Positions 5,614-24,423 of a DNA stretch of 34,528 bases are shown here, piece after piece. The first letter of the stretch is position 1. Each line of letters begins with the position of its first letter. A model generated the notes under the pieces. The model saw only the letters and a program-made list of their open reading frames with translations, ran no database searches and was not told where the DNA came from. Source of the stretch: a bacterium (GTDB lineage Bacteria > Zhuqueibacterota > Zhuqueibacteria > Zhuqueibacterales > Zhuqueibacteraceae); the NCBI GenBank assembly GCA_044869275.1, contig JBIOXB010000190.1, positions 1 to 34,528 of the forward strand, read 5' to 3'. The position numbers were made by a program, and so were the translations under genes.

Positions 5614-6957
5614 TCACTCGACCAGCTGGGCCCGCGCCTGCTCTTGCTCGCGGATGGCCTGTCGTGCGAGCTTGCGTCTGAATACCACACCACTGATAGC
5701 ATTGTCCGTGAGCCGGCGCGCCCTTTTCAGATGCGCAACGGCCTCCGGATGCAAATGAGCGCCGGCCAACACCTCGATGCTATCATCAATTTCCTGCCGC
5801 GCGCGTTCCAGCAACAGTTTGGATTCTTTCCATTGAAAGAAACCGCTCTGGATGCTTGACTCTGAGAACGCATTACTTTCCCGAATATTCTCCAAGGCAT
5901 TGAGAACCCTGAGGAACGCTGCCACTGCCACGATTTGAGTGCCATCCAGCTCGATCCCCACACCGTTGGGATCTGTACTTGCCAGAAAACGGCCGGAAGG
6001 CGAATTGTTAAACGCTTCGCCATCATAAAATCCCACGGCTCCCTCGATGGTTTCGATGGCATTGTTGTGAAAGAAAGGCCCGGAATCGGCCGCTTCCACC
6101 AAAGGCGGCACATTGAATGTGCTGTCACCCGGTATGCCGAATCCATCATCCGGCGGAACCAGCTCACCCGTTAAATCGGCCGGCTGGTCGGGAAGATCCT
6201 CAACGCCCGTATTAAAACTGGCATTGCCCAGGTTCTGTCCGCCCACATTCGCATTCGCGCCGGCATTCGTGTGGCAGATGCTGCACTTTCCCAGGGTATT
6301 GTCGAGAAAAATTTCCTGTCCGCGCTTGGGCACAGTGCCCTTCAAAGGCAATGGCAAAGACAAATCCTGCTGGCGCCCCAACGAAAGCTGAAATGCTTCC
6401 AGGGCGTCCAATTCCTCCTCGGTGGGAAGCCGAAAATCGACATCGGGAATGCGACTCAAAGTCTTGGTGAAGTGCTGAATAACGGCGCCGATGGCAAAGG
6501 AACGCAGCGATCCGTCGCCGGGCGCGCCGTCACCTGACCATCCCGTGCGGGGGCCGTCCGGGCTAGTGATGGAGGTCGGAAGCGCCAGGGTATGTGGCAC
6601 CCCGCGCATGACGAATTTGTTTGGCAAGTCGTCAAAACCATCCAGGTTTTCCATAATCAATCCAAACTCTCGCATCAGCCGGGGATTTTCAAAATTTTCT
6701 TTCAAGGCTGGATTGAATTCCGCGACAAAAAGCGGATCATCCTGCGGCAGAGTGGCGATAAACGCGGGGTCGATGGTGAAGTTATTTTCTTCCGGATGGC
6801 AGGTTCCGCAAGTTCTGCCGTTGCCGTTGAATGTTTCGTTGAAGAAGATCTTTTTCCCTTTGGCAATGAGGGCCTCCGGCGAACCGGGAGGCGGTGTTGA
6901 TGATTGGCAGGCAGACAGCGTTAGCAGAATGAGCAGGACGGGTATGAAGTTTCTCAT
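5614..6957 (-). CDS. Di-heme cytochrome c lipoprotein of the bCcP/MauG superfamily
   Basis: Two CxxCH motifs (CGTCH, CSICH), FNVPPL...GPFFHN motif, lipobox LSAC. Start placed at ATG 6957 behind AAGGAG (ORF track begins at 6978). Confidence 0.85.
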   Translation of the reverse strand: MRNFIPVLLILLTLSACQSSTPPPGSPEALIAKGKKIFFNETFNGNGRTCGTCHPEENNFTIDPAFIATLPQDDPLFVAEFNPALKENFENPRLMREFGLIMENLDGFDDLPNKFVMRGVPHTLALPTSITSPDGPRTGWSGDGAPGDGSLRSFAIGAVIQHFTKTLSRIPDVDFRLPTEEELDALEAFQLSLGRQQDLSLPLPLKGTVPKRGQEIFLDNTLGKCSICHTNAGANANVGGQNLGNASFNTGVEDLPDQPADLTGELVPPDDGFGIPGDSTFNVPPLVEAADSGPFFHNNAIETIEGAVGFYDGEAFNNSPSGRFLASTDPNGVGIELDGTQIVAVAAFLRVLNALENIRESNAFSESSIQSGFFQWKESKLLLERARQEIDDSIEVLAGAHLHPEAVAHLKRARRLTDNAISGVVFRRKLARQAIREQEQARAQLVE

Positions 6958-8008: not shown

Positions 8009-8461
8009 ATGCCACAAAGCCTTGCGAGCATCCCAGTCCATTTTATTTGGAGCACGAAAGACCGGCAGCCATTCATCCGGCCGGAAATCGAAAAAGAATT
8101 GTTCAGCTATATGGCCGCCATCTTTCGCGAGTATGAATCTCCGGCGCTCACCATCAACGGGACCGAAAATCATGTGCATAGCCTCGCCATACTTTCGCGC
8201 AAGATTACCGTCGCCAAGCTCATCGAAGAAGTGAAAAAGAGCTCTTCGAAATGGATTAAAACCAAGGGCGAGTTCTATAGGGACTTCTATTGGCAAAGTG
8301 GTTATGCCGCATTGGGAATAGGGCAATCGAATATCGAGGCATTGAAGAGATACATCGCCAATCAGAAAGAACACCATCGTAGAAAAACATTTCAAGAGGA
8401 GTATATCGTGTTTTTAAAAAAATACAATATCGAATACGATGAACGATATGTTTGGGATTGA
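8009..8461 (+). mobile_element. tnpA: IS200-like Y1 HUH transposase, REP-associated (RAYT-like)
   Basis: VHFIWSTKDR, HUH motif NHVHSL, FYWQSGY, catalytic YIANQ; strong SD; no tnpB; flanked by inverted REP clusters. Confidence 0.92.
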
Positions 8462-8837: not shown

Positions 8838-11800
8838 TCACACTGCAACCTCCGGCGGCAACAGTTTGTACATCACCGGCGTCACCAGGCGCGCGAGCAA
8901 TGTCGAGCTGATCAGGCCGCCGATGATCACCCACGCCAGCGGCGAGTAAAGCGAGGAGCCGCCCAAAGCAATGGGCAAAAGTCCGCCGATGGCCGTCATC
9001 GTCGTCAGCAACACCGGCACGAAGCGAATCTCGCCGGCTTTTTGCACGGCCTCGTCGAGGCTCAGGCCTTGCTCGCGCAGTTGATTGGTGAAATCCACCA
9101 GCAAGATCGAGGTTTTTACTTCGATGCCGACGAGCGCGATAAAACCGATGATCGCGGTGAAGGACAATGAATTGCCGGTGAGCAATAGAAACACCAGCCC
9201 GCCGACCATGCCCAGCGGCACCACGGAAAGCACGATCAGCGTGCTTTTGAAACCCTTGAACTCCAATACCAGCGTCGCGAGCACGCCAAAAATCGCGATC
9301 AAAATCGCTGTGCCCAGGCCGCCGAAACTTTCCTGCCGGCTCTCAATCTCTCCCGCAGGAATATAATGATAACCCGCAGGAAATTTCACCGCCTCGAGCT
9401 TGGCCAAAATCGCTTTCGTGACTTTGTCCGTATTGTGGCCGGTTTTGACAAAAGCCGTCAGCGTTACCGCGCGCTCCTTATTGTAGTGATCGATGCGCGT
9501 GGGCGAGGCTTTGAATTCCAGCGCCGCCAACTGGCGCAATGGAATTTGTGCGCCGGTCATGGAGGCGACGTAAATGTGATCGAGCGCCGTGATCTCGGGC
9601 TTGCCATTTCTGGGCAGAGTCAAATTGATGTCGTACTCATCACCGTCTTCTTCTCGAAATTTTCCCGCGCTGATGCCGGCCAGGCTCATGCGCACGGTGC
9701 GCTGCACTTCGACCACCGGCACGCCCAGCAGCCCGGCTTTGTCGTGATCCAGCGCCACTTGGATGTCGGTTTTGGCAATCTTCACCGGATTGTTGACATA
9801 CAGTGTGCCCGGCGTGGATTTGAAAATCTCTTCCACTTCTCCTGCCAGCTGCTTCAATGTCTCGAGATTTTCGCCCACCAAGCGCACGGCAATGGGCGCG
9901 TCGATGGGCGGCCCGTTCTCGAATTCCTTGAGCTCGATCTTGGCATTGGGATAGCCCGCAAAGAGCGCGCGCAGCTCATCATAAAATTGCGGCGTGTGCG
10001 CCGTGCGATATTTGTGCAATTCCGCCAAAATCTCGGCGACGTTGCTCTTTTCATGGCGCGTCGCCACGTTGTAATAGACAAAAGGATTGCCTTTGCCGAG
10101 ATTGGTCATGTAGCTTTTGATCTCAGGCCGTCGCGCCAGCTCGGATTCCACGAAACGCACGGCTCTGTCGGTTTCGGACAGGCTGCTGCCTTCGGGGGTT
10201 TCGAGGGTGATGCGAAACTGCGGCAAGCCGGCTTTGGGAAACAAACTGTAACCGATGACCGGCACCAGTAACAGGCTGGCCGCGAACAACCCGCCGGCAA
10301 TAGCAAGGGTTCTTGCCGGGCGCGCGATCGACCATCCCAGCAGGCGTTTGTAGGTAAAATGGATAAAGCGATTCAGGCCTTTGAGAAAAATATTGCCGTG
10401 CTCGTCTTCATTTTCATGCAGCACGCGGCTGGCCAGGAACGGAATGATGGTCAAAGACACGAACAACGAAGCCAGCACGGTGACCACCACGGCCACGGGC
10501 AGGCTGCGAATGTAGTCACCCGCCGCGCCCGGCAAAAACAGCAGCGGCAGAAAGGCAAAAATCAAAGTTGCGGTGCAGCCGATCACCGCCACGCCGATTT
10601 GTTTTGTCGCGGCGATGGCAGCTTGCACGCGGCTCGCGCCCTGGCGCAAAAAGCGCGTGATGTTTTCCGCCACCACGATGGAATCGTCGACCAGCAAGCC
10701 GAGCGCAATGACAAAGCCCACAATGCTCAATTGGTTGAGATTGAAGCCAAACGACTCCAATAGGAACAAACCGATCAAAAGCGAAAGCGGGATCGAAATC
10801 ATCACGATGAGCGAGGCGCGCACGCCCAGGGGCAAAAGTGTGACCAGCACCAGAATGATGGCGATCCCAAAGTCGCGGTAAAGGCTGTTCAAACGGCCGG
10901 CGACATTTTGCGCCTGATCGAATCCGATTTGCAGAGAAATATTTTTCGGCAGCTCATTTGCAAAGGCGGCAACTTCCGCGCCGAGATTTTCGCGCACCTT
11001 GAAAATATTCTGCCCGGCTTTCTGATTGGCAGTCACGAACACGGCACGCTGACCATTGTAGCGGCCGGCATAGGTCAGGTCTTCATAATTCCATTCCACC
11101 TCCGCGACATCCTGCAAAAACACCGCTTGGCCGGCAGCGGCCCCCACCACCGTGCGCCGGATTTCCTCGAGCGATTTGTAATTCCCGCTGGTTTTAATGT
11201 TGAACTTCTTGCCGCCGACATCCACACTGCCACCCGGAATGTTGGCATTGCTCGATTGGATCATGCCGATCACCTGGCTGAGCGGAACGCGGAGTTGCGC
11301 GAGCTTGCCCAAGTCCAGCGCCACGCGCACTTCGCGCTCGGGGTAGGCCAGCTTTTCCACTTCTTTTACACCGCTAACGGTTTTCAACCGCTTTTTGAGC
11401 TTTTCGGCTTGCTCTTCGAGATCTTTGTATGGCGCGGTTTCGGAAACCAGCGCAATTTGCAGAATATTGACGTTCGTGGTGTTGAAGTGCACGGTTTCCA
11501 GGCTGAGCAAATCCGCGGGCAAATCGCCGCGAATGCTGTTGATCTCGCGCAAAACCTCGTCGTATTTTTTGTCGGCGTCAACGTACGTTTCGAATTCAAC
11601 GCGCATATACATCAAGCCGTCTTCCATTTCCGCGCGCAGACGCTTCAAATCTTCGAGCTCGTTGATTTTCTCCTCCAGCGGATCGACCACGAGCTGTTCG
11701 AGGTCCACCGGGCCGGCGCCGGGATAAATCGCGATAATGGCGTAGGTGGGATTGGGGAACGAAGGATCTTCCGAACGCGAGATGTTGACAAAGGTATTGA

Positions 11801-15997: not shown

Positions 15998-17719
15998 TTG
16001 ATCACCTCTCTGGCGCCAAGCCCCATGGCTGTGAAGACCAACACCTCCGCTCTTTTCGAAACACAAGAAACGGCGACGGCCCTTCCTCTTGCTCCGCCCC
16101 GGGAGGTGGAACACGCGCCCTCAGAAGCGCAGCGCGCCGGCACAATGCTGCGCGTTTTCGGCAATGAGCGCCTCGCGTTTTTCGAATCGGAGCGTGCGCC
16201 ATTTTATCTCAATATTCTCTACAAAATGCTGCTCCTGCGGCGCGAGCATGAGCTGCAGCCGCCGCACGAGGATTTGTACTACGCCGTGCGCGAGAGCCAA
16301 TTGCTGCTGGCGGCGGATTATGAATTGAATCAATTCGCGGCGGACGTCGCGCAACTGCTCGCCTGGGGCAATCTTACCAAAGTGTTGGAACCTTACCGCC
16401 TGCGCAGCTACAAAGATCTCAGTCGCGAAAATTACCGCTACGTGCTCAATGAGAACACCGTCGCATTTCTGCAATGGCTCGAGTATCGCGTGCGCACGCG
16501 CAGCGAAGGTCGCAGCCGCGACGGCCGCAATTTTTTGCAGGACATTGTCGCCGCACTGCAGGAATTCGACCGGTTGTGCACCGCGGCCCCGCTGCACGAA
16601 ACCGGCTTGTCGGAAGAGATCGCCCGGCGCGCGATGCATTTGCGTTACGCCATCGAAGATCACATGCACGATCTTTCCGCCGAGTTGTTGGAATTTCGCG
16701 CCACCATGGTGCAGTTCGTCACGCGTGCCTACGATATCGAGACTCTTAAAGGGATTCTGTTATGGCTGAGCCGCTATGTCGAAGTCTATTTGCAAGGCAT
16801 CTATCATTTGCGCGAGCGTATTCTCGAATTGATTGCCAGGCTCGACACCAACGCTACCCGCGTCTTGCTGGCGAGCAGCCAGGCGTTTATCGCCGCGCAA
16901 CGCCGCCAAATGCCGCAGGCGCTGCGGGGCGATCTCGCCGCGGAACCGGCTGACGCCGAAGACTTCTTGCGCCACGTGCACGAATTTTTTGCGCGCGACA
17001 CGAAGCTGGACGAGCTGTGCGAGCGCATTCATGCCACGGCGCGCGAAGTGATCAAGAAGATGGACGCCAAACTGCGCGAGCTCGAGCGCCGCAACACGCG
17101 TATTCACGATCTTAAGGCACGCATTCGCGAGCTCGCCAACGCGCCGGTTGATCTTCGCTACGGCGGCAATTCTCTTTCATCTGATGGCCGGCTATTCGAA
17201 GCAAGCGAAGAGGGCGAATGCCTCGCAGGTTATCGCTTCATCAATGCTGTGTTGCTACCCTCTTACGCTCAACTTGATGCGCAATATTGGGACTTGCATA
17301 CGAAAGCTGCACCGCCGCGGCCACGCAGCCGAACGCAGAGCTCGCCTAGCTCCGTGCCCAAGACTTACCTCAAGTCCAAGGCGCGAACCAAACAAGAAAT
17401 CTATGCGCTGGAAGCAAAAAGGCGCGAAGAGCTCCGCCAGTGGCTCCTACGCTTTTTGTTCAAGGGACAGGCAAAAATCCGTCTGGCCGGCCTCGAGCTC
17501 GACGACCCAAGCGCCGCTGCATTCTGGATGAAGCTCATGCATTTTGTCCACGTTACACCGACTAAAGATTTGCAGAAACTGCAAGTGCAAGTGCGCGAGC
17601 TCACGCAGCTCTCAGAGATTCCAGCGAGTGTGCTGATCGGCAATGCAACGGCAGGTGTTTATACGCCGGATCATCTGGTCATCGACTTAAGCGCAGAGGG
17701 CGGAGGGCCGAGAGCATAG
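15998..17719 (+). CDS. jetA: Wadjet JetA (kleisin-like; DUF2397/TIGR02677-like)
   Basis: QLLAWGNL...SYKDLSRENYRYVL signature; first gene of a jetABC-like run. Start uncertain (TTG 15998 or ATG 16025). Confidence 0.82.
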   Translation: MITSLAPSPMAVKTNTSALFETQETATALPLAPPREVEHAPSEAQRAGTMLRVFGNERLAFFESERAPFYLNILYKMLLLRREHELQPPHEDLYYAVRESQLLLAADYELNQFAADVAQLLAWGNLTKVLEPYRLRSYKDLSRENYRYVLNENTVAFLQWLEYRVRTRSEGRSRDGRNFLQDIVAALQEFDRLCTAAPLHETGLSEEIARRAMHLRYAIEDHMHDLSAELLEFRATMVQFVTRAYDIETLKGILLWLSRYVEVYLQGIYHLRERILELIARLDTNATRVLLASSQAFIAAQRRQMPQALRGDLAAEPADAEDFLRHVHEFFARDTKLDELCERIHATAREVIKKMDAKLRELERRNTRIHDLKARIRELANAPVDLRYGGNSLSSDGRLFEASEEGECLAGYRFINAVLLPSYAQLDAQYWDLHTKAAPPRPRSRTQSSPSSVPKTYLKSKARTKQEIYALEAKRREELRQWLLRFLFKGQAKIRLAGLELDDPSAAAFWMKLMHFVHVTPTKDLQKLQVQVRELTQLSEIPASVLIGNATAGVYTPDHLVIDLSAEGGGPRA

Positions 17720-17804
17720 CGCAGAGGGCATAGAGCCTAGCGCGTGCCCTTCACGCTTTGCCCTCTGCCCTCTGCTCTAAGCTCAATGCCTTCTGCGCTT
17801 TGCC
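17711..17804. repeat. Heptamer repeat (AGAGCAT/AGGGCAT vs TGCCCTC/TGCTCTA) with inverted arms between jetA and jetB
   Basis: Period-7 units; the jetA stop TAG lies inside the repeat. Confidence 0.8.
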
Positions 17805-17819
17805 ATTGGAGCCCACACC

Positions 17820-18482
17820 ATGTCCACCGAATTCTTCTCCCACTTGAATCTTCACAAGGTGAAACAACTGCTTAATATCTTGCAGGAATCGCCTTATTTT
17901 TACCGCGATGATGATCCCACGTTGTTCGCTTTTCTCAGGCAAAATCGCTTGCAGTTCGAGCGCTTCTACCAGCATTTCTACGGCTGGGAGATCGTGGTGG
18001 ATCAAAAATGTGCACGGCTCTATAAGCCGAATTGGTACAACGATTTCGTCACGCCGGCGCAGCGCGATTTGTTTCAATTGACCAGGCGCAACGATTGCCT
18101 GGCATTCTTGCTGGTGCTGGAGTTCTATGAACACCTCCTGGAGGAGCAGAATCTCACAATTGAAGACACCAATCCCAAATTTTATTTCGGCGAGCTGCTC
18201 GAGTTCGCCCAGCGCCGTCTGCAGGAGGAATTAGGAGAAAAAGCACCCAGTATGGCCGGTGTCCGCGAGATTCTTCGCCGTATCCTGCCGATGCTGCTGC
18301 GTTACCGCTTTCTGCGCGAGCATCCTCCCGAGTATGAAGACGGCGAGATCGACAAAGACAAGTGGATCTACGAAGGCATGCCCGCGCTGTATCATTACGA
18401 CAGCCGCGTCGCCTCGCAATCGATTTATGCCGCGTGCTTTGGCCCGAATGGGAAAGATCAGAACGGCTCGGATGCAATATAG
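17820..18482 (+). CDS. jetB: Wadjet JetB (KITE-like; DUF2398/TIGR02678-like)
   Basis: LL..P...DDPTLF...FYGWEIVVDQKCARLYK pattern; SD GGAG; abuts the SMC gene. Confidence 0.8.
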   Translation: MSTEFFSHLNLHKVKQLLNILQESPYFYRDDDPTLFAFLRQNRLQFERFYQHFYGWEIVVDQKCARLYKPNWYNDFVTPAQRDLFQLTRRNDCLAFLLVLEFYEHLLEEQNLTIEDTNPKFYFGELLEFAQRRLQEELGEKAPSMAGVREILRRILPMLLRYRFLREHPPEYEDGEIDKDKWIYEGMPALYHYDSRVASQSIYAACFGPNGKDQNGSDAI

Positions 18483-18483
18483 T

Positions 18484-21400
18484 ATGAATCCTCCGCGAAA
18501 AAATTATCTCGAATATCAAATCGTGCGCCTGCGATTGATCAATTTTCACAACTTTGTCAACGAGATCATCGACCTACGCCAGGGCGGTCATCTCTTTTTG
18601 GTGGGGCCCAACGGTTCCGGCAAAAGCACGGTCATCGATGCCGTGCACGTGGCGCTTTCGGGCGCGCAGGAGGTCGAACTCAATGCCGCGGCACGCCTCG
18701 GGGGTCGTAAAGACGAAGGCCGGACCCTGCAAGGTGTGGTATTACGTTACGATCGCGAACTCGGCGCGCTCAATGCCGGCGGCGGCATCAGCTATGCAGC
18801 ACTTGAGCTGGCCGCAGCACAAGGCGAGAAGCGCATCGCGCTCGGCATCGGCCTTGAGGCGACGACGATGGAGGCGCGACTGTCACGCTGGGGATTCATA
18901 GTGAAAGGCTGCGGCGTGGAAGAGCTGCCGTTGGTGATGGAGGAATTAGCGGGTCAGCGGCCGGCCACGCGCACGGAGCTGGAGGAGAAAATCGGCAAGG
19001 GCAATGTCTATGGTCAACTAAAGCCCTTTCGCAAAAAAATCGCCGAGGAGTTCTTTGCCTCTGAATCCCTCTATGAACAAGTGGTGCACTTGTGGGGCAC
19101 AGGCAAGGCCTACCGCGAGATTTGTGCGCGCGCCGGAGACTTTCAAACATTGTTCATGAGCCTGTTGCCCGAACCCGACCTCGAGATTTTTGCCGAGATC
19201 ATCCACAGCCTGAGCATTATTCAGGAATTCGCCGTCACGCTCGAGCAACTGTCGGAACAGCTTCGCTATCTCGAACGCCTGCAAACGCTGCAGGACACTG
19301 TGGCCAAGGCGCGGGAGGAAGAAACACGCTACGCTTGGTTGATTTCATACCGTGCAAGCCAGGCTGGCAAGGAGCGTCTATGCGAAATGGACAAGCAGGC
19401 GGAGCAACTCGCCGCAGAGACGCAGCAACTGGAAGCACACCTGCAGGCCGCGCAAGATGAGCTCGCACATGTCAAAACAATGCTCACCGGGCTGCGCCAC
19501 AAGGATGAGGCCAGACTCCTGGACCGCTTGCATGCCAAGAAGGAAGAGTCACAACGACGCCAGAAATCCCTTCAGCCCATACAAGAACAGGTCAGGACTT
19601 ACGAACAACGCCTGCAACGCGCCGAACACGAGTTGCGTGTGCGCCATTCTGAATTGCTGCTTGAGCTCGAACAAGCGCAACACGCGTTGTCACAAAACCT
19701 GCCGTTCTTGAAACCGGCACCGCGGCCGGTCACAGAATTTGTGAAAAATCTTGCGCTCACCACACCGGCCGATTTTCGCGAGCGCAGCCTGGGACCGGAG
19801 GCGAAAGCCGCAGCCCAAGCAGCTTCCGAGCAATTGGCAGAATTAACGCAGGAACAGATGCGCCTGCAACATGAGCTCGAGCGCCACGAGCAGCTCAGAC
19901 ACGAGATGCAGGATGGCATCGCGCGCTTGCAGCAGCAACGCGAATGGCTTCCGCAACTGCCGGACTACCACCAATGCTTGCAAAGCCTGGAAGCGGAGGG
20001 GTTGCAGCCGCTGCCGCTGTACAAATTACTGGAGTGGCGTGCGGATGATGCGGACCTGCGTGCGGCGGTTGAAGAGTTGCTGGGGCAACAACTGCTGGGA
20101 ACGCTGGTGCTCAACGGTGAAGCTGAAAGCATCAAAGCTGCCGTTTTACAAAGTTTTCCAGGGATTGCGATTGCCCAACCGCTCGAGGAGGAAGTAACCA
20201 GTCCGGAGTGGCTAACAGCGGCATTGGAGGATCGTTCCGGCGGAGCCGCGCTGCAAGTTATCGGCGCCGCACTGGCGGCTCGCGAGGGCCAGCAAGCTGA
20301 ATATGCCTCCCGATCACGACAACTCGCCTTGCGCGGCTTGCGTTGGAAAAGCGAGCTCAAGCCGGCACGCCTGATTGGTGAAGAGGCGCGACGTCGGGCT
20401 TTTGAGCAGGAGCTGGAGCAGCGGCAAGCCGAGCTGCGCGAGCAGGAGAACAAGATTGCCGAGGCGGAAAAGTTGAAAGAGCAAACGCTGGCATTGATAT
20501 CGCACTGGCGCAACTTTACCGGGCATTTGCGCAATTTCATGGAGGAAAGGCTGCCACAAGCATTTCGTGCACACGAAGCAGCCGAAACGCAATGCAAAAA
20601 CCTGCAAAGCTCCCACGCCGAATGGGCCAGCAACCTGGCCCAGGCCTGCGCAGACCTAGAACAACTCGAACAAGAAAGTCGACAACTTGAACAGCACGCC
20701 CGCGCCGGCGGCTTGGAGGAGCTGGCCAGAAGTATCGCGGCCTTGGAAAAACGTGAGCGCGAGTTTGAAGCGAGAGTGCGAGCTTCATCCGAGGAACGAG
20801 GGCGGTTGCGCCATGAAGTGACCCAGCTGCAGAACGAAGTCTCCTTCCAGAAAGAACAAGTGGCGCACCTCGAGCAGGATTTGCAAGACAAGACCGTGCA
20901 ATTGCGCCAATATGTTGCGGAGCCGGCTGCGCCGGATTTGGCCTATTACGTTTTGAACACCCGTGGGGGAGAGCGTTTCAAATCCGATGCCGCCATTCAA
21001 AGCCGCAGGCAAGAGGCGCATGACACGATCAACAACGCGATCACCCGGCTGCAAGGCTCGGGCGAGGAGGGCGTGCATTACCGCCAGTATGCCGGCGTTT
21101 TTGCTTTCAGCTATCTTCCCGAGGAGAATCAAATCATCGACCGGCAACATCAGCCACTGGCCGGCGTACATCGCCGTTTACATCAGGATCATGCCGAGCA
21201 GCAAGAGCTGCTCAACGAAAAGAACAAAGATTTGTTGGATCGCTTGATCATGCACAGTCTGTTGCGGCATCTCGTCGAGCAAGTCATGCTGCAAAGGCAT
21301 ATGATCAAAAATATCAACCGGCTGCTGCGCGAGATCGATTTTGGCGGCACGGTCTACGCGTTCGCCGTGCATGCCAAACCCGAGCACGCTGAAGTGGTGC

Positions 21401-22005
21401 GGATTTTGGAGAATTCTTCCCTGCTCAATGAAGAGGGACAGCAAGGCTTTCGCGCCTTCATCGAGGCACGGTTGGCGGATTTACGCAGCAGCGAGCCCGG
21501 CACGGTGCCCCCGCTGTTGGATTATCGCACTTGGTTCGATTACAAGCTCACATTTCGCGATACCAAAGACCAGGCGACGGAGCTGACGCGGCGCATGCGC
21601 AACCTCGGTTCCGGCGGCGAGCAAGCTGTGCCAAATTATCTGCTGGTGCTGGCCATGGCGCATCTCGTGTTTGAAAACAGCCGTGCGCGCTTGCGGCCGA
21701 TGCTGTTTGACGAGGCGTTCTACGGCATCGACGCCGGCCGCCGCAACCGCTTGCTGGAATTTGCCACGCGGCTTGGCATGCAATTGTTCGTCGCCTCGCC
21801 CGATCAGGACGGGCACACTGAAGCCGTGCACTACGCAACCACGGTGTTCGTACAAAAAGATGAAAGCCGCGACGTGCATCTCACCGCCTTGCACTCGCAT
21901 TTTGCGCCGGAAGAAAAACAAGAAACTTTGTTTGCTGCGTCGGCACCGCTGCGTGAAGCGATCGTTGTTGACAACGTAGAAGTGGTGGCACAAAATCGGA
22001 ATTGA
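18484..22005 (+). CDS. jetC: Wadjet JetC, SMC-family ATPase
   Basis: RLRLINFHNF, Walker A GPNGSGKST, long coiled coils, LDYRTWFDY, signature GSGGE, Walker B/D-loop LFDEAFYGID. Start at ATG 18484 (or 18472). Confidence 0.92.
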   Translation: MNPPRKNYLEYQIVRLRLINFHNFVNEIIDLRQGGHLFLVGPNGSGKSTVIDAVHVALSGAQEVELNAAARLGGRKDEGRTLQGVVLRYDRELGALNAGGGISYAALELAAAQGEKRIALGIGLEATTMEARLSRWGFIVKGCGVEELPLVMEELAGQRPATRTELEEKIGKGNVYGQLKPFRKKIAEEFFASESLYEQVVHLWGTGKAYREICARAGDFQTLFMSLLPEPDLEIFAEIIHSLSIIQEFAVTLEQLSEQLRYLERLQTLQDTVAKAREEETRYAWLISYRASQAGKERLCEMDKQAEQLAAETQQLEAHLQAAQDELAHVKTMLTGLRHKDEARLLDRLHAKKEESQRRQKSLQPIQEQVRTYEQRLQRAEHELRVRHSELLLELEQAQHALSQNLPFLKPAPRPVTEFVKNLALTTPADFRERSLGPEAKAAAQAASEQLAELTQEQMRLQHELERHEQLRHEMQDGIARLQQQREWLPQLPDYHQCLQSLEAEGLQPLPLYKLLEWRADDADLRAAVEELLGQQLLGTLVLNGEAESIKAAVLQSFPGIAIAQPLEEEVTSPEWLTAALEDRSGGAALQVIGAALAAREGQQAEYASRSRQLALRGLRWKSELKPARLIGEEARRRAFEQELEQRQAELREQENKIAEAEKLKEQTLALISHWRNFTGHLRNFMEERLPQAFRAHEAAETQCKNLQSSHAEWASNLAQACADLEQLEQESRQLEQHARAGGLEELARSIAALEKREREFEARVRASSEERGRLRHEVTQLQNEVSFQKEQVAHLEQDLQDKTVQLRQYVAEPAAPDLAYYVLNTRGGERFKSDAAIQSRRQEAHDTINNAITRLQGSGEEGVHYRQYAGVFAFSYLPEENQIIDRQHQPLAGVHRRLHQDHAEQQELLNEKNKDLLDRLIMHSLLRHLVEQVMLQRHMIKNINRLLREIDFGGTVYAFAVHAKPEHAEVVRILENSSLLNEEGQQGFRAFIEARLADLRSSEPGTVPPLLDYRTWFDYKLTFRDTKDQATELTRRMRNLGSGGEQAVPNYLLVLAMAHLVFENSRARLRPMLFDEAFYGIDAGRRNRLLEFATRLGMQLFVASPDQDGHTEAVHYATTVFVQKDESRDVHLTALHSHFAPEEKQETLFAASAPLREAIVVDNVEVVAQNRN

Positions 22006-22031
22006 CTAAATCGGCTAAAATGTTGTACCTT
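22002..22031 (+). promoter_or_regulatory. Putative internal sigma70 promoter for the Rpn-like gene
   Basis: TTGACT-18 nt-TACCTT; the -35 overlaps the jetC stop codon. Confidence 0.4.
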
Positions 22032-22038
22032 GAATCAA

Positions 22039-22929
22039 ATGGGGGAAAGAGCCGTGCAAGATATCGATCGCGTATTTAAAGCTTTATTAGGGCTGCAACC
22101 AAACAGCTTTTTGGATCTGCTCTTTGGCCACGAGCGCAAGATCGTGTTGAAAGAAGTCGCCGATCCGCAAATCAATTTACCGGAGCTACGTGGGGACAAG
22201 GTATTTGTGGTCGAAGAAAATGGCACGGCATTTAATATCATTCTCGAAGCAATGTTGCGTCCGGCGGTCGAAGAATTGCCCACATTTGAGCTGAAAGCGA
22301 GGGGAATGCAGTATCTCACCAAACGACCAACGATGGTTGTCATTGTATATCTCGAAAAAGGGCGATATGCTTCTTTCCCGGATAGCTTCGAAATTCGACA
22401 TGGTGCTTTTGCAAACCAAATCGAGCTTGCCAGAGTTTTGTTGTGGGAATATGAGTTGCGTATCACCAGCGGCGAGCTGAAAGAGTTGGCGCCGTTTCTT
22501 TCGCTGTTCAAAGATCAACCGGATCCTGATGTCATTGATACTCAGATTGCGCTGCTTCATCAGATCGCTGATACGAAAATCCAAAACGATCTCATATCCT
22601 TGGCCGCTGTAATTGATGTACGTGTGTTCGGTCTTTCAATTGTAATTGAGAAATTTAGAACGGAGGAAAGAATGCTCAAGGAATCTAGCATCGTGCAAGA
22701 GTGGGTGCATGAAGGAATGGTTGAAAGCAAACTTGCTTTGCTTCAGAGTATTCTTGCGAAAAAATTTGGGGATTTGACCCCGGATCTCGCAGACAAGTTG
22801 CATCAACTAGAGCTTACGGAATTGGATCGGCTCGGCCCGGCACTGTTGGATTTTCATAGCTTGGACGATTTGAAAACCTGGCTGAACAATGCTGCCTCCG
22901 GCAACGGGCAAAAGCAAATGGCGAATTGA
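22039..22929 (+). CDS. Rpn/YhgA-like PD-(D/E)XK-fold protein with a C-terminal DUF4351 domain
   Basis: DRVFKALL, LRGDKVF, IILEA, VVIVYL, LAPFLSL; C-terminal L.KKFGDL...L..L.LTELD.LG.ALLDF.SLDDLKTWL. Start is ATG 22039 or GTG 22054. Confidence 0.8.
   Translation: MGERAVQDIDRVFKALLGLQPNSFLDLLFGHERKIVLKEVADPQINLPELRGDKVFVVEENGTAFNIILEAMLRPAVEELPTFELKARGMQYLTKRPTMVVIVYLEKGRYASFPDSFEIRHGAFANQIELARVLLWEYELRITSGELKELAPFLSLFKDQPDPDVIDTQIALLHQIADTKIQNDLISLAAVIDVRVFGLSIVIEKFRTEERMLKESSIVQEWVHEGMVESKLALLQSILAKKFGDLTPDLADKLHQLELTELDRLGPALLDFHSLDDLKTWLNNAASGNGQKQMAN
22672..22929 (+). CDS. Putative internally initiated 85-aa small form (RpnS-like antitoxin; DUF4351 only)
   Basis: GGAGG at 22662-22666, 5 nt before the in-frame ATG at 22672 (MLKESSIVQEW...), right at the domain boundary. 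Confidence 0.6.
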   Translation: MLKESSIVQEWVHEGMVESKLALLQSILAKKFGDLTPDLADKLHQLELTELDRLGPALLDFHSLDDLKTWLNNAASGNGQKQMAN

Positions 22930-24238
22930 CGCCGACATACCCACTTTCAAAGAGCGCCTGGCCGAAATATTGCCCAAGAATTCGGCAATGGCCGCCTTTC
23001 TCAAGGACTTCTGCGCGCGCTCGTTTAAGACCGGCGAGCTTCCCAAGCGCAGCCGTTTCCGCCACGTTTCTCCAGAACTGAAAAGCGACCTGCACCTCAT
23101 CTTCGGCATGCGCGCGATTAAAGAGCAGCAAGATCATCTTGTTCTCGACCTCACGGCGGCCGGATGTGCGGACACCGAAGCGCGACGAAATCTGCTGCAC
23201 GCTCTGGTAGACGTGCTCGGCCTTCAGCCTCAAAACCGGCGCGAGCAGCGACGGCAAACGCATGCAACATTGCAGGAAAAATTGCGAACCTTCCTCCCTC
23301 TTCTTCGCTCTCCTCTCCCACAAAAGGTTCATCAACGTCTCACTGACGATCTCGCCGCACAGCACGGCTATCTTTGGCGCGAAGGCATCTTGAGAAAGCA
23401 GGCAACAACGGCGTTAAAAAATGCCTCCTCAATCCTGAGCGCGCTGGAGCTCGTTGCTGCGCGCGAGCGTTCTTGGAATTTTTCGGAGTTGGGCGCACGG
23501 GTTGTGGGTTCATCAAAGGGCTTTCGCCCCGGCAGCGAGCTCTATCGCCTGGCGGCAGATTGGACGCTGCCGTTTTTGGAGAATGCTGAAACTCTCTCGC
23601 AAATCGAGGACACCGCGATTCGCCGCGCACGGGTGTGGGAACAGCTTGGCGTGGAGCAGAGTGGCGCTGCGATCACGGCCATGATCGGAGGTCCGCTGGT
23701 CTATAAAAAGCGAGGCCGGACCTTCGCGGCGCTGCAACAATATTTCGAGATGGGCGAGCCGGCCACACTTTCGCTGGCGCAGTTGGCAGGCCTCGAGCAT
23801 ATTGCGCCCTTGTTCCATACGATTCTCACGGTCGAAAATTTGACCCCGTTCGTGCAAGCGGTGGAACAACCAGCGCTGTCGCATGCCCTGATCGTTTACA
23901 CCGAAGGCTTTCCCAACCGCGCCGTGTCGCAATTGCTGAGGCTGTGCCAACAGCACGTTGCGAATCTGAGTTTTCTGCATTGGGGTGATACCGACCTTGC
24001 CGGCGTGCGCATTCTCAGAAATATCGCGGATATTTTGGGCGAAGCGCCGGCGACTTTTCGTTGCGGTCCGGAAGAGATTGCGCGATTGCAGTCCCGCTTG
24101 ATTCCGCTCACGCCGGAAGCACACGATCACATCGTGCAAGATCTCCGCGATTATCCTGATGCGCCCGGCCATGAGATTTTGCAGGCGGTTTTGCAGTACG
24201 GCGGCTGGCTGGAGCAGGAAGCATGGGAGAAGCCGTGA
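22889..24238 (+). CDS. jetD: Wadjet JetD, Toprim nuclease (DUF2399/DUF2220-like)
   Basis: ILTVENLTPF, LIVYTEGFP, LHWGDTDLAGVRI (DxD), terminal LEQE. True start may be downstream (e.g. ATG 22988). Confidence 0.88.
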   Translation: MLPPATGKSKWRIDADIPTFKERLAEILPKNSAMAAFLKDFCARSFKTGELPKRSRFRHVSPELKSDLHLIFGMRAIKEQQDHLVLDLTAAGCADTEARRNLLHALVDVLGLQPQNRREQRRQTHATLQEKLRTFLPLLRSPLPQKVHQRLTDDLAAQHGYLWREGILRKQATTALKNASSILSALELVAARERSWNFSELGARVVGSSKGFRPGSELYRLAADWTLPFLENAETLSQIEDTAIRRARVWEQLGVEQSGAAITAMIGGPLVYKKRGRTFAALQQYFEMGEPATLSLAQLAGLEHIAPLFHTILTVENLTPFVQAVEQPALSHALIVYTEGFPNRAVSQLLRLCQQHVANLSFLHWGDTDLAGVRILRNIADILGEAPATFRCGPEEIARLQSRLIPLTPEAHDHIVQDLRDYPDAPGHEILQAVLQYGGWLEQEAWEKP

Positions 24239-24307
24239 AGCATCATGAGCATAATTTCAAATCCCCGATAACTCAACACAGACGAGCCGCAATTAGAAAA
24301 ACTTTTC

Positions 24308-24370
24308 CCAACGGATAGATGAAGCCCAACGGATAAATTTTCGATCCGTTGGGCTTCATCCATCCGCTGG
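24308..24370. repeat. Long hairpin downstream of jetD
   Basis: CCAACGGATAGATGAAGCCCAACGGAT-9 nt-ATCCGTTGGGCTTCATCCATCCGCTGG, 27-bp arms with 2 mismatches. Confidence 0.8.
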
Positions 24371-24423
24371 AGATTTTCGCTTTTTCAAAAAATTTCACTA
24401 GTAAGAATGTCATTCCCTCGAAT

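Follow-up and report, generated by a model that had tools for sequence, protein, structure and literature searches.

An intact Wadjet operon from a bacterium for which related records and proteins bear the label candidate division KSB1 carries an Rpn/DUF4351 gene between jetC and jetD, and this insert is probably an autonomous toxin-antitoxin passenger that entered the junction in the ancestor of a single KSB1 genus. The window, by which we mean the whole 34,528-nt stretch of DNA analyzed (contig C190 of genome G000, in whose coordinates positions are given), holds five open reading frames (ORFs) in the same orientation at 15998-24238, in the order jetA-jetB-jetC-rpn-jetD. Judging from characterized homologues, JetABC would extrude DNA loops and JetD would cut small circular plasmids, and the long Rpn product, RpnL, would be a DNase held by an internally translated antitoxin, RpnS, and freed under phage infection or stress. 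With a promoter-like element of its own, the cassette would leave jetD transcribed; because JetD is reported to require its own JetABC for cutting (bioRxiv 10.1101/2025.03.10.642339) and the cassette has its own predicted promoter, an insert upstream of jetD should be harmless. Wadjet and Rpn would be additive as separate defenses, with no contact or co-regulation beyond a common transcript.

The original prediction, made from the DNA letters, had proposed this gene order together with intact SMC ATPase and Toprim motifs, and both are upheld. All five products exceed the Pfam cut-offs of their families: DUF2397 for JetA, DUF2398 for JetB, SbcC Walker B and AAA_29 for JetC, DUF4351 for the insert, and JetD_C/DUF2399 for JetD. 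PADLOC, the typing that had been recommended, matches its Jet models to the four jet genes and has no model for the insert. JetC has the motifs GPNGSGKST, LGSGGE and FDEAFYGID, JetD has TVENL and HWGDTD, and all 17 aligned JetD proteins share the Toprim acidic residues E316, D367 and D369. With genes for a kleisin, a KITE protein, an SMC ATPase and a Toprim nuclease in one operon, the locus is a Wadjet by gene content, and most likely it restricts small circular DNA in a way that depends on ATP and JetABCD, as its homologues do. An assembly artefact is ruled out, because one contig from run X1 (which may be the source sample) covers the whole locus and two contigs of a second sample, X2, cross the jetC-rpn and rpn-jetD junctions, all with no differences.

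Occurrence of the insert and its paralogues

Among 48 related loci, drawn from genomes and metagenomes, jetD lies downstream of jetC in 26, is inverted upstream of jetA in four, and is missing within 3-7 kb in five, while three loci end too early and ten lack the jetC end. A survey of jetC-jetD intervals had been suggested as a check, and it did not bear out a recurrent association, as narrow and broad profiles find Rpn at just one of the 26 junctions, that of G001 from the same genus. The insert is therefore not a conserved Wadjet component; it is neither retained across related loci nor repeatedly gained, and the simplest history is that one genus gained it. The next-closest loci with a visible junction (L008, L066, L067 and L069; JetC 60-67%) all lack it. 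In 20 of the 26 the gap is at most about 100 bp, and one further locus holds part of jetD only; L035 and L076, probably one organism, have a 619-bp gap with yjbQ, and L066 and L067 have 200-300 bp with a palindromic repeat. Of 167 genomes of the phylum, three have JetC and the same three have JetD_C: G000, G001 and G016; the G001 insert is 73% identical to the window rpn, and G016 has none.

The caveat that Rpn/DUF4351 genes are promiscuous passengers, raised in the original prediction, proved apt. Paralogues of rpn are present in 16 of the 19 genomes of the family, with up to 18 matches per genome, and occupy 14 other sites, which are mostly housekeeping (by Pfam matches of 44 hand-picked flanking ORFs, mainly from 147 listed) and include aconitase-yjbQ, lpxA-ybjQ-lplA, tsaD, thymidine phosphorylase, OPT, TonB and fecR. 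At E<=1e-30, 16 of the 167 phylum genomes have this Rpn, almost solely those of one KSB1 family, sampling outside KSB1 being thin. At three of 13 sites tested in G000 the flanking genes are adjacent without rpn (87 bp apart, 154 bp apart, and abutting), and the other ten are uninformative. In a tree, the jet-site pair is nested in the family Rpn radiation beside the copies at OPT sites (94/98 support, just under the starred threshold). The window rpn has a GC content of 46%, compared with 52-58% in its neighbors, and 20 of 24 family copies are likewise AT-richer than their own flanks. Neither target duplication nor terminal inverted repeats were seen at the rpn junctions, and none is reported for rpn genes generally.

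Between G000 and G001, purifying selection acts on each of the five genes, with ratios of nonsynonymous to synonymous divergence (dN/dS) of 0.08-0.20, and 0.11 for rpn. The jet genes have a dS of 0.53-0.63, about half the median of 1.13 over 41 genes of the genome background, which suggests an exchange of the jet block later than the split of the two species. The rpn dS is 1.2, against about 0.6 for the jet genes; we rejected a separate history for rpn on this ground, as in seven of the 13 further orthologous pairs that have flanks the rpn dS is also higher than that of every flank. In the comparison that gave the low jet dS (15998-24238 of the window against L005), the downstream flank is shared and the upstream flank differs.

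The original prediction had offered the insert as part of a layered five-gene system or as a guard module; its toxin-antitoxin appearance held up, and the comparative side did not, with the insert missing from close loci and its family promiscuous. In one rival reading the cassette arrived by chance and was later recruited into an addiction or guard role, such that loss or silencing of the jet genes would deplete RpnS and free RpnL, stabilizing Wadjet or adding abortive infection upon Wadjet shut-off. The toxin-antitoxin layout, the low dN/dS and retention of rpn in both genus members would accommodate this, the low jet dS fits a lineage-hopping block able to profit from an addiction module, and defense genes embedded in other defense operons are documented (bioRxiv 10.1101/2024.01.29.577857). 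However, different species also conserve paralogues at housekeeping sites, so that retention is not Wadjet-specific; the promoter and internal start predicted for the cassette would uncouple the RpnS supply from the jet promoter, and 25 of the 26 related junctions do without rpn. We consider co-option unlikely, and prefer the autonomous passenger.

Some of the surveyed loci depart from the usual order in other ways. L035 (also L076) has a PDDEXK_3 (GxxExxY) gene at 5844-6251 between jetA and jetB, as well as yjbQ at 10643-11062 between jetC and jetD. The deltaproteobacterial loci L009-L012 have jetD on the opposite strand upstream of jetA, in divergent orientation. L018, L023, L025, L027 and L077 have jetC (and jetA and jetB where covered) with no jetD detected within 3-7 kb downstream, and are possible nuclease-free versions of Wadjet; a Fic/Doc gene with a small upstream ORF lies downstream of jetC in L018.

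A divergent Rpn gene with a predicted internal antitoxin

The insert had been taken for an Rpn/DUF4351 gene, and its DUF4351 tail, acidic residues and predicted internal RpnS start agree with this. Its link to Rpn is indirect but consistent across profile, feature, structure and residue comparisons. A close-family profile retrieves distant paralogues across their full length, and these match TIGR01784 weakly (L116: E 1.4e-5, 25 bits, cut-off 52.1); the best close-family member in searches with TIGR01784 and PF04754 reaches E 0.0086. The Atlas feature score to Rpn/DUF2887 clusters is 0.97. A model of the N-domain has middling matches to NucS (Z 6.6, root mean square deviation [rmsd] 3.0, 102 residues aligned), XisH (Z 6.4) and McrC, and Foldseek with the Rpn model returned nothing at E<=0.001. 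A profile built without RpnA aligns to the RpnA catalytic stretch, including D63 and E82 (E 7e-4 for one target). When the close-family profile was compared directly with RpnA, no match emerged (probability 0.5), and a 99.9% profile match to RpnA was set aside as circular, RpnA itself being inside the alignment.

The invariant residues D5, D48 and E65 align to D11, D63 and E82 of RpnA, each of which is essential there (PMC5350276). The equivalent of RpnA Q84 is M or I in 22 of 22 proteins (M in the window protein), that of R94 is mostly T (also in the window protein), and that of Y98 is an invariant lysine, Lys81, four residues past the R94 position. The distant paralogues L119, L120, L123 and L126 also lack the Q84 equivalent (EFY, EFL, EFI and EFF, respectively), so that active-site drift is common in KSB1 Rpn proteins. 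Nuclease activity of the window Rpn is nonetheless plausible, because RpnA Q84A and R94A remain toxic (PMC5350276). The replacements at these two positions, the failure of the window protein to match TIGR01784 or PF04754, and internal stops in some family copies would suit an Rpn derivative that has lost some or all of its catalytic activity, a structural or DNA-binding relic that is a neutral or regulatory passenger and neither toxin nor defense. That reading has to contend with the three invariant acidic residues, the toxicity of the RpnA mutants, the invariant Lys81 near the R94 position, and an internal antitoxin start conserved down to the codon, as one would expect only with a harmful long form; we regard it as improbable and keep to a passenger that probably works as a toxin and antitoxin.

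An internal start in Rpn genes is reported to give rise to the antitoxin RpnS, and four-residue repeats follow 8-20 residues past that start (PMC10400941). The same sequence features, an internal ribosome site and start and four-residue repeats, are found in this family. M207, the predicted RpnS start, is invariant in 22 of 22 proteins, and pairing with the anti-Shine-Dalgarno sequence at its ATG averages -8.8 kcal/mol over 24 genes, versus -1.8 kcal/mol at 85 other in-frame ATGs; this gene set omits six of 30 loci that were duplicates, truncated or had misassigned starts. The glutamate three codons 5' of the RpnS ATG is encoded by GAG in 21 of 22 cases, compared with 292 of 659 other glutamate codons, although the genes are kin and the p-values for these start statistics are overstated. 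The repeat block is variable, being 16 residues longer in the G001 copy, and the window RpnS has no extra repeats. Stand-alone DUF4351/RpnS-like copies lie directly 3' of rpn in L038 (1000-1428), L051 and L057 (1011-1337), and resemble E. coli rpnESs and rpnCSs.

The stop codon of jetC falls within the -35 box of the predicted rpn promoter. This element recurs in G001 and the sister copies L038 and L039, and a stricter consensus promoter scan did not list it.

Several observations weigh against the insert being an autonomous toxin-antitoxin passenger. Two of the three Wadjet loci among the 167 phylum genomes carry rpn, which is kept under strong purifying selection in both sequenced members of the genus. 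Only 11 of 24 family copies have a promoter element like that of the window that beats shuffles. A defense-like neighbor is present at two of the 14 other sites, GmrSD_N in L051 and SpoVG-TIR in L056, the L065 copy has a PIN gene upstream, and rpn genes are described as enriched near defense genes (PMC10400941). The window Rpn falls short of the curated Rpn cut-offs and lacks the Q84 and R94 equivalents, so that its nuclease activity can only be inferred. With these set against the single occupied junction and the spread of paralogues, we still hold the passenger to be the probable explanation. The SpoVG-TIR fusion gene (L056:634-1347) is directly 3' of its rpn copy, and has a homologue in G000 on contig C208.

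The jetD start and the surrounding DNA

A gene of about 295 aa abutting or overlapping jetD had been predicted; the co-oriented gap gene is there, with 291 aa from its most likely start (the GTG at 22054, which has a Shine-Dalgarno sequence upstream, and not the TTG at 22030), and the 41-nt overlap holds only if jetD starts at ATG 22889. The other candidate jetD starts are ATA 22937, at the ancestral start position, and ATG 22988, and none of the three has a good ribosome site. In relatives (G001, G016 and L066) the start is an ATG at the position of the window ATA, which is 7 nt past the rpn stop and is confirmed by contigs of two runs; jetD of G001 begins 16 nt past its rpn stop. JetD translation may be coupled to rpn, or reduced, in the window genome. 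This coupling is the sole possible functional wiring that we found, and G001 lacks it.

One could build on this wiring and imagine the rpn cassette turned Wadjet guard: the rpn promoter would drive jetD, whose translation, its own ATG lost here, would be coupled to that of RpnS, and Wadjet shut-down would thus remove the antitoxin and fire an abortive-infection nuclease, all on an undescribed clade with type II-like JetA and JetC and a pre-duplication single-KITE JetB; we give this combination little credence. That Rpn is a dedicated fifth subunit, binding JetD or JetABC and adding a second nuclease or a regulator, is very improbable: tight co-orientation and the possible translational coupling to jetD here, where the ancestral ATG is ATA, are outweighed by its absence from 25 of the 26 related junctions, by nearest paralogues that adjoin an OPT transporter, and by a search, itself weak, in which no longer or fused Rpn form was found.

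Features of the Wadjet locus and the rpn cassette in the window
Feature	Position	Strand	Details
jetA, kleisin	15998..17719	+	573 aa from TTG; alternative ATG at 16025; Pfam DUF2397 57.8 bits (cut-off 28.5)
jetB, single (non-tandem) KITE, 220 aa	17820..18482	+	DUF2398 38.2 bits
jetC, SMC ATPase	18484..22005	+	Walker A, signature and Walker B/D-loop motifs all intact
Sigma70-like promoter predicted for the rpn cassette, TTGACT-N18-TACCTT	22002..22031	+	Weighted scan, shuffle p 0.017
rpn (RpnL), 291 aa	22054..22929	+	Putative PD-(D/E)XK-type N-domain and DUF4351 tail
Internal Shine-Dalgarno GGAGG (22662-22666) and ATG 22672, predicted RpnS start	22662..22674	+	Anti-Shine-Dalgarno pairing -9.5 kcal/mol
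Predicted RpnS antitoxin, 85 aa	22672..22929	+	From sequence and analogy to PMC10400941
jetD, Toprim nuclease, start uncertain	22889..24238	+	JetD_C 43 bits
Palindromic repeat 3' of jetD	24296..24372	.	Hairpin -43 kcal/mol

The jetC start is most likely the ATG at 18484 rather than the GTG at 18259. The operon is flanked by an efflux operon upstream and by rlmB-like and peptidase genes downstream; we rejected a defense-island context on the basis of these flanks, and Pfam detected no defense family in the 11 flanking ORFs scanned (G001, G016). An IS200-like Y1 transposase gene at 8009-8461 adjoins the efflux operon, and could relate to the palindromic repeats. These repeats form a family with the core CCAACGGATA, of which G000 has 58 exact 10-mer copies, and they occur 3' of jetD in the window and at the jetC-jetD junctions of L066 (3064-3363) and L067 (3117-3321). 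The jetA-jetB gap (17691-17800) has short GCAGAGG/GCATAG-type repeats, which together with their complements make up an imperfect palindrome.

Wadjet type and comparison with known systems

The Wadjet that hosts the insert matches models of both type I and type II. Models for JetB1, JetC1 and JetD1 and type II models all match window proteins, and the type II domains DUF2397, DUF2398 and DUF2399 are present above Pfam cut-offs; TIGR02677-80 are matched below their own cut-offs. JetA matches only PADLOC JetA2, as do all 22 aligned homologues, with no JetA1 match at E<=0.01 in these 22 members. The sole PDB match of the JetC clade profile at E<=1e-5 is type II nvJetC (9QE0, E 2.6e-24), and the best PADLOC models for JetC (JetC1 PDLC00519) and JetD are of type I clusters. 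The PDB sequence search gave no relevant match to the JetA and JetB profiles, and the JetD profile reached only MksG (E 0.0013).

JetB matches both halves of the JetB2 (type II) models as well as JetB1, and its structure model (predicted local distance difference test [pLDDT] 84.5) is one KITE, resembling E. coli JetB (8AS8; Z 13.2, rmsd 4.5, 188 residues aligned). Its structural matches are, in order, type I JetB (Z 13.2 and 12.3), then MukE and nvJetB (10.7). The best 120 of 183 JetB homologues are 208-251 aa, in a search that admitted lengths up to 473 aa; the tandem KITE of type II has about 390 aa and four winged helices, which JetB does not have. Type II KITE genes are reported to be larger in most or all cases, and might all be tandem (bioRxiv 10.1101/2025.03.10.642339). 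By the KITE feature, as modelled, this clade with type II-like JetA and JetC is not type II, and its single-KITE JetB may be a retained pre-duplication state. The single-KITE clade is large, with hosts that include KSB1, Lentisphaerae, Riflebacteria and myxobacteria-like bacteria, and its JetB is similar to each of the two lobes of the tandem KITE of type II.

The architecture had been thought to be undescribed, and we found no description of an Rpn inside Wadjet in the Wadjet and Rpn literature searched. The main text of PMC10400941 does not contain 'Wadjet'; the main text of a study of embedded genes (bioRxiv 10.1101/2024.01.29.577857) has no Rpn or DUF4351, and has Wadjet only as an ABC-ATPase/Toprim example; the defense-neighbor tables of both could hold cases. 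The window resembles the cases in the study of embedded genes in having a candidate defense gene nested in a defense operon, whereas the nested gene here also inserts at many non-defense sites. Wadjet, Rpn and embedding in defense operons are already known, and this arrangement is a variant confined to a lineage and does not amount to a new system. A predicted Rpn toxin-antitoxin cassette wedges into operons, a defense operon included, and embedding by itself does not make a new defense system.

The insert is like the E. coli Rpn genes-within-genes (RpnA-E and RpnP2; PMC10400941, PMC5350276) in its putative PD-(D/E)XK-type N-domain with D11/D63/E82 equivalents, in the internal Shine-Dalgarno sequence and ATG for a small C-terminal protein, in repeat variation shortly past the Met, and in the DUF4351 tail. 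The likeness extends to single-gene gain and loss without terminal inverted repeats or target duplication, and to insertion within operons, with E. coli rpnC located between panC and panD (PMC5350276). Unlike those proteins, the window Rpn is below every curated model cut-off, has E-A-M in place of E-x-Q, T for R94 and an invariant K for Y98, and is nearly restricted to one KSB1 family; the sequence evidence for an intragenic RpnS is thereby extended to a divergent family that the curated Rpn models miss and whose active site is altered.

Compared with the type II Wadjet nvJET-II of Neobacillus vireti (9QE0/9QE1), the window locus has the same jetABCD order, DUF2397 JetA, DUF2398 JetB and DUF2399-type JetD, but its JetB is a 220-aa single KITE rather than a 388-aa tandem KITE, its JetC has about 1170 aa rather than 1371, and rpn splits jetC from jetD. 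With type I Wadjets (E. coli GF4-3, 8AS8; P. aeruginosa PA14, 8DK1) it shares a JetB of similar size, modelled as a single KITE (best structural match, Z 13.2 and 12.3), and best PADLOC models for JetC and JetD from type I clusters, whereas its JetA matches type II models only and its JetC profile misses the type I JetC structures at E<=1e-5. The single-KITE, type II-like clade departs from the suggestion that type II KITE proteins might all be tandem and offers a natural comparison for the origin of the tandem KITE, and the host Wadjet clade is perhaps a more useful lead than the rpn insert.

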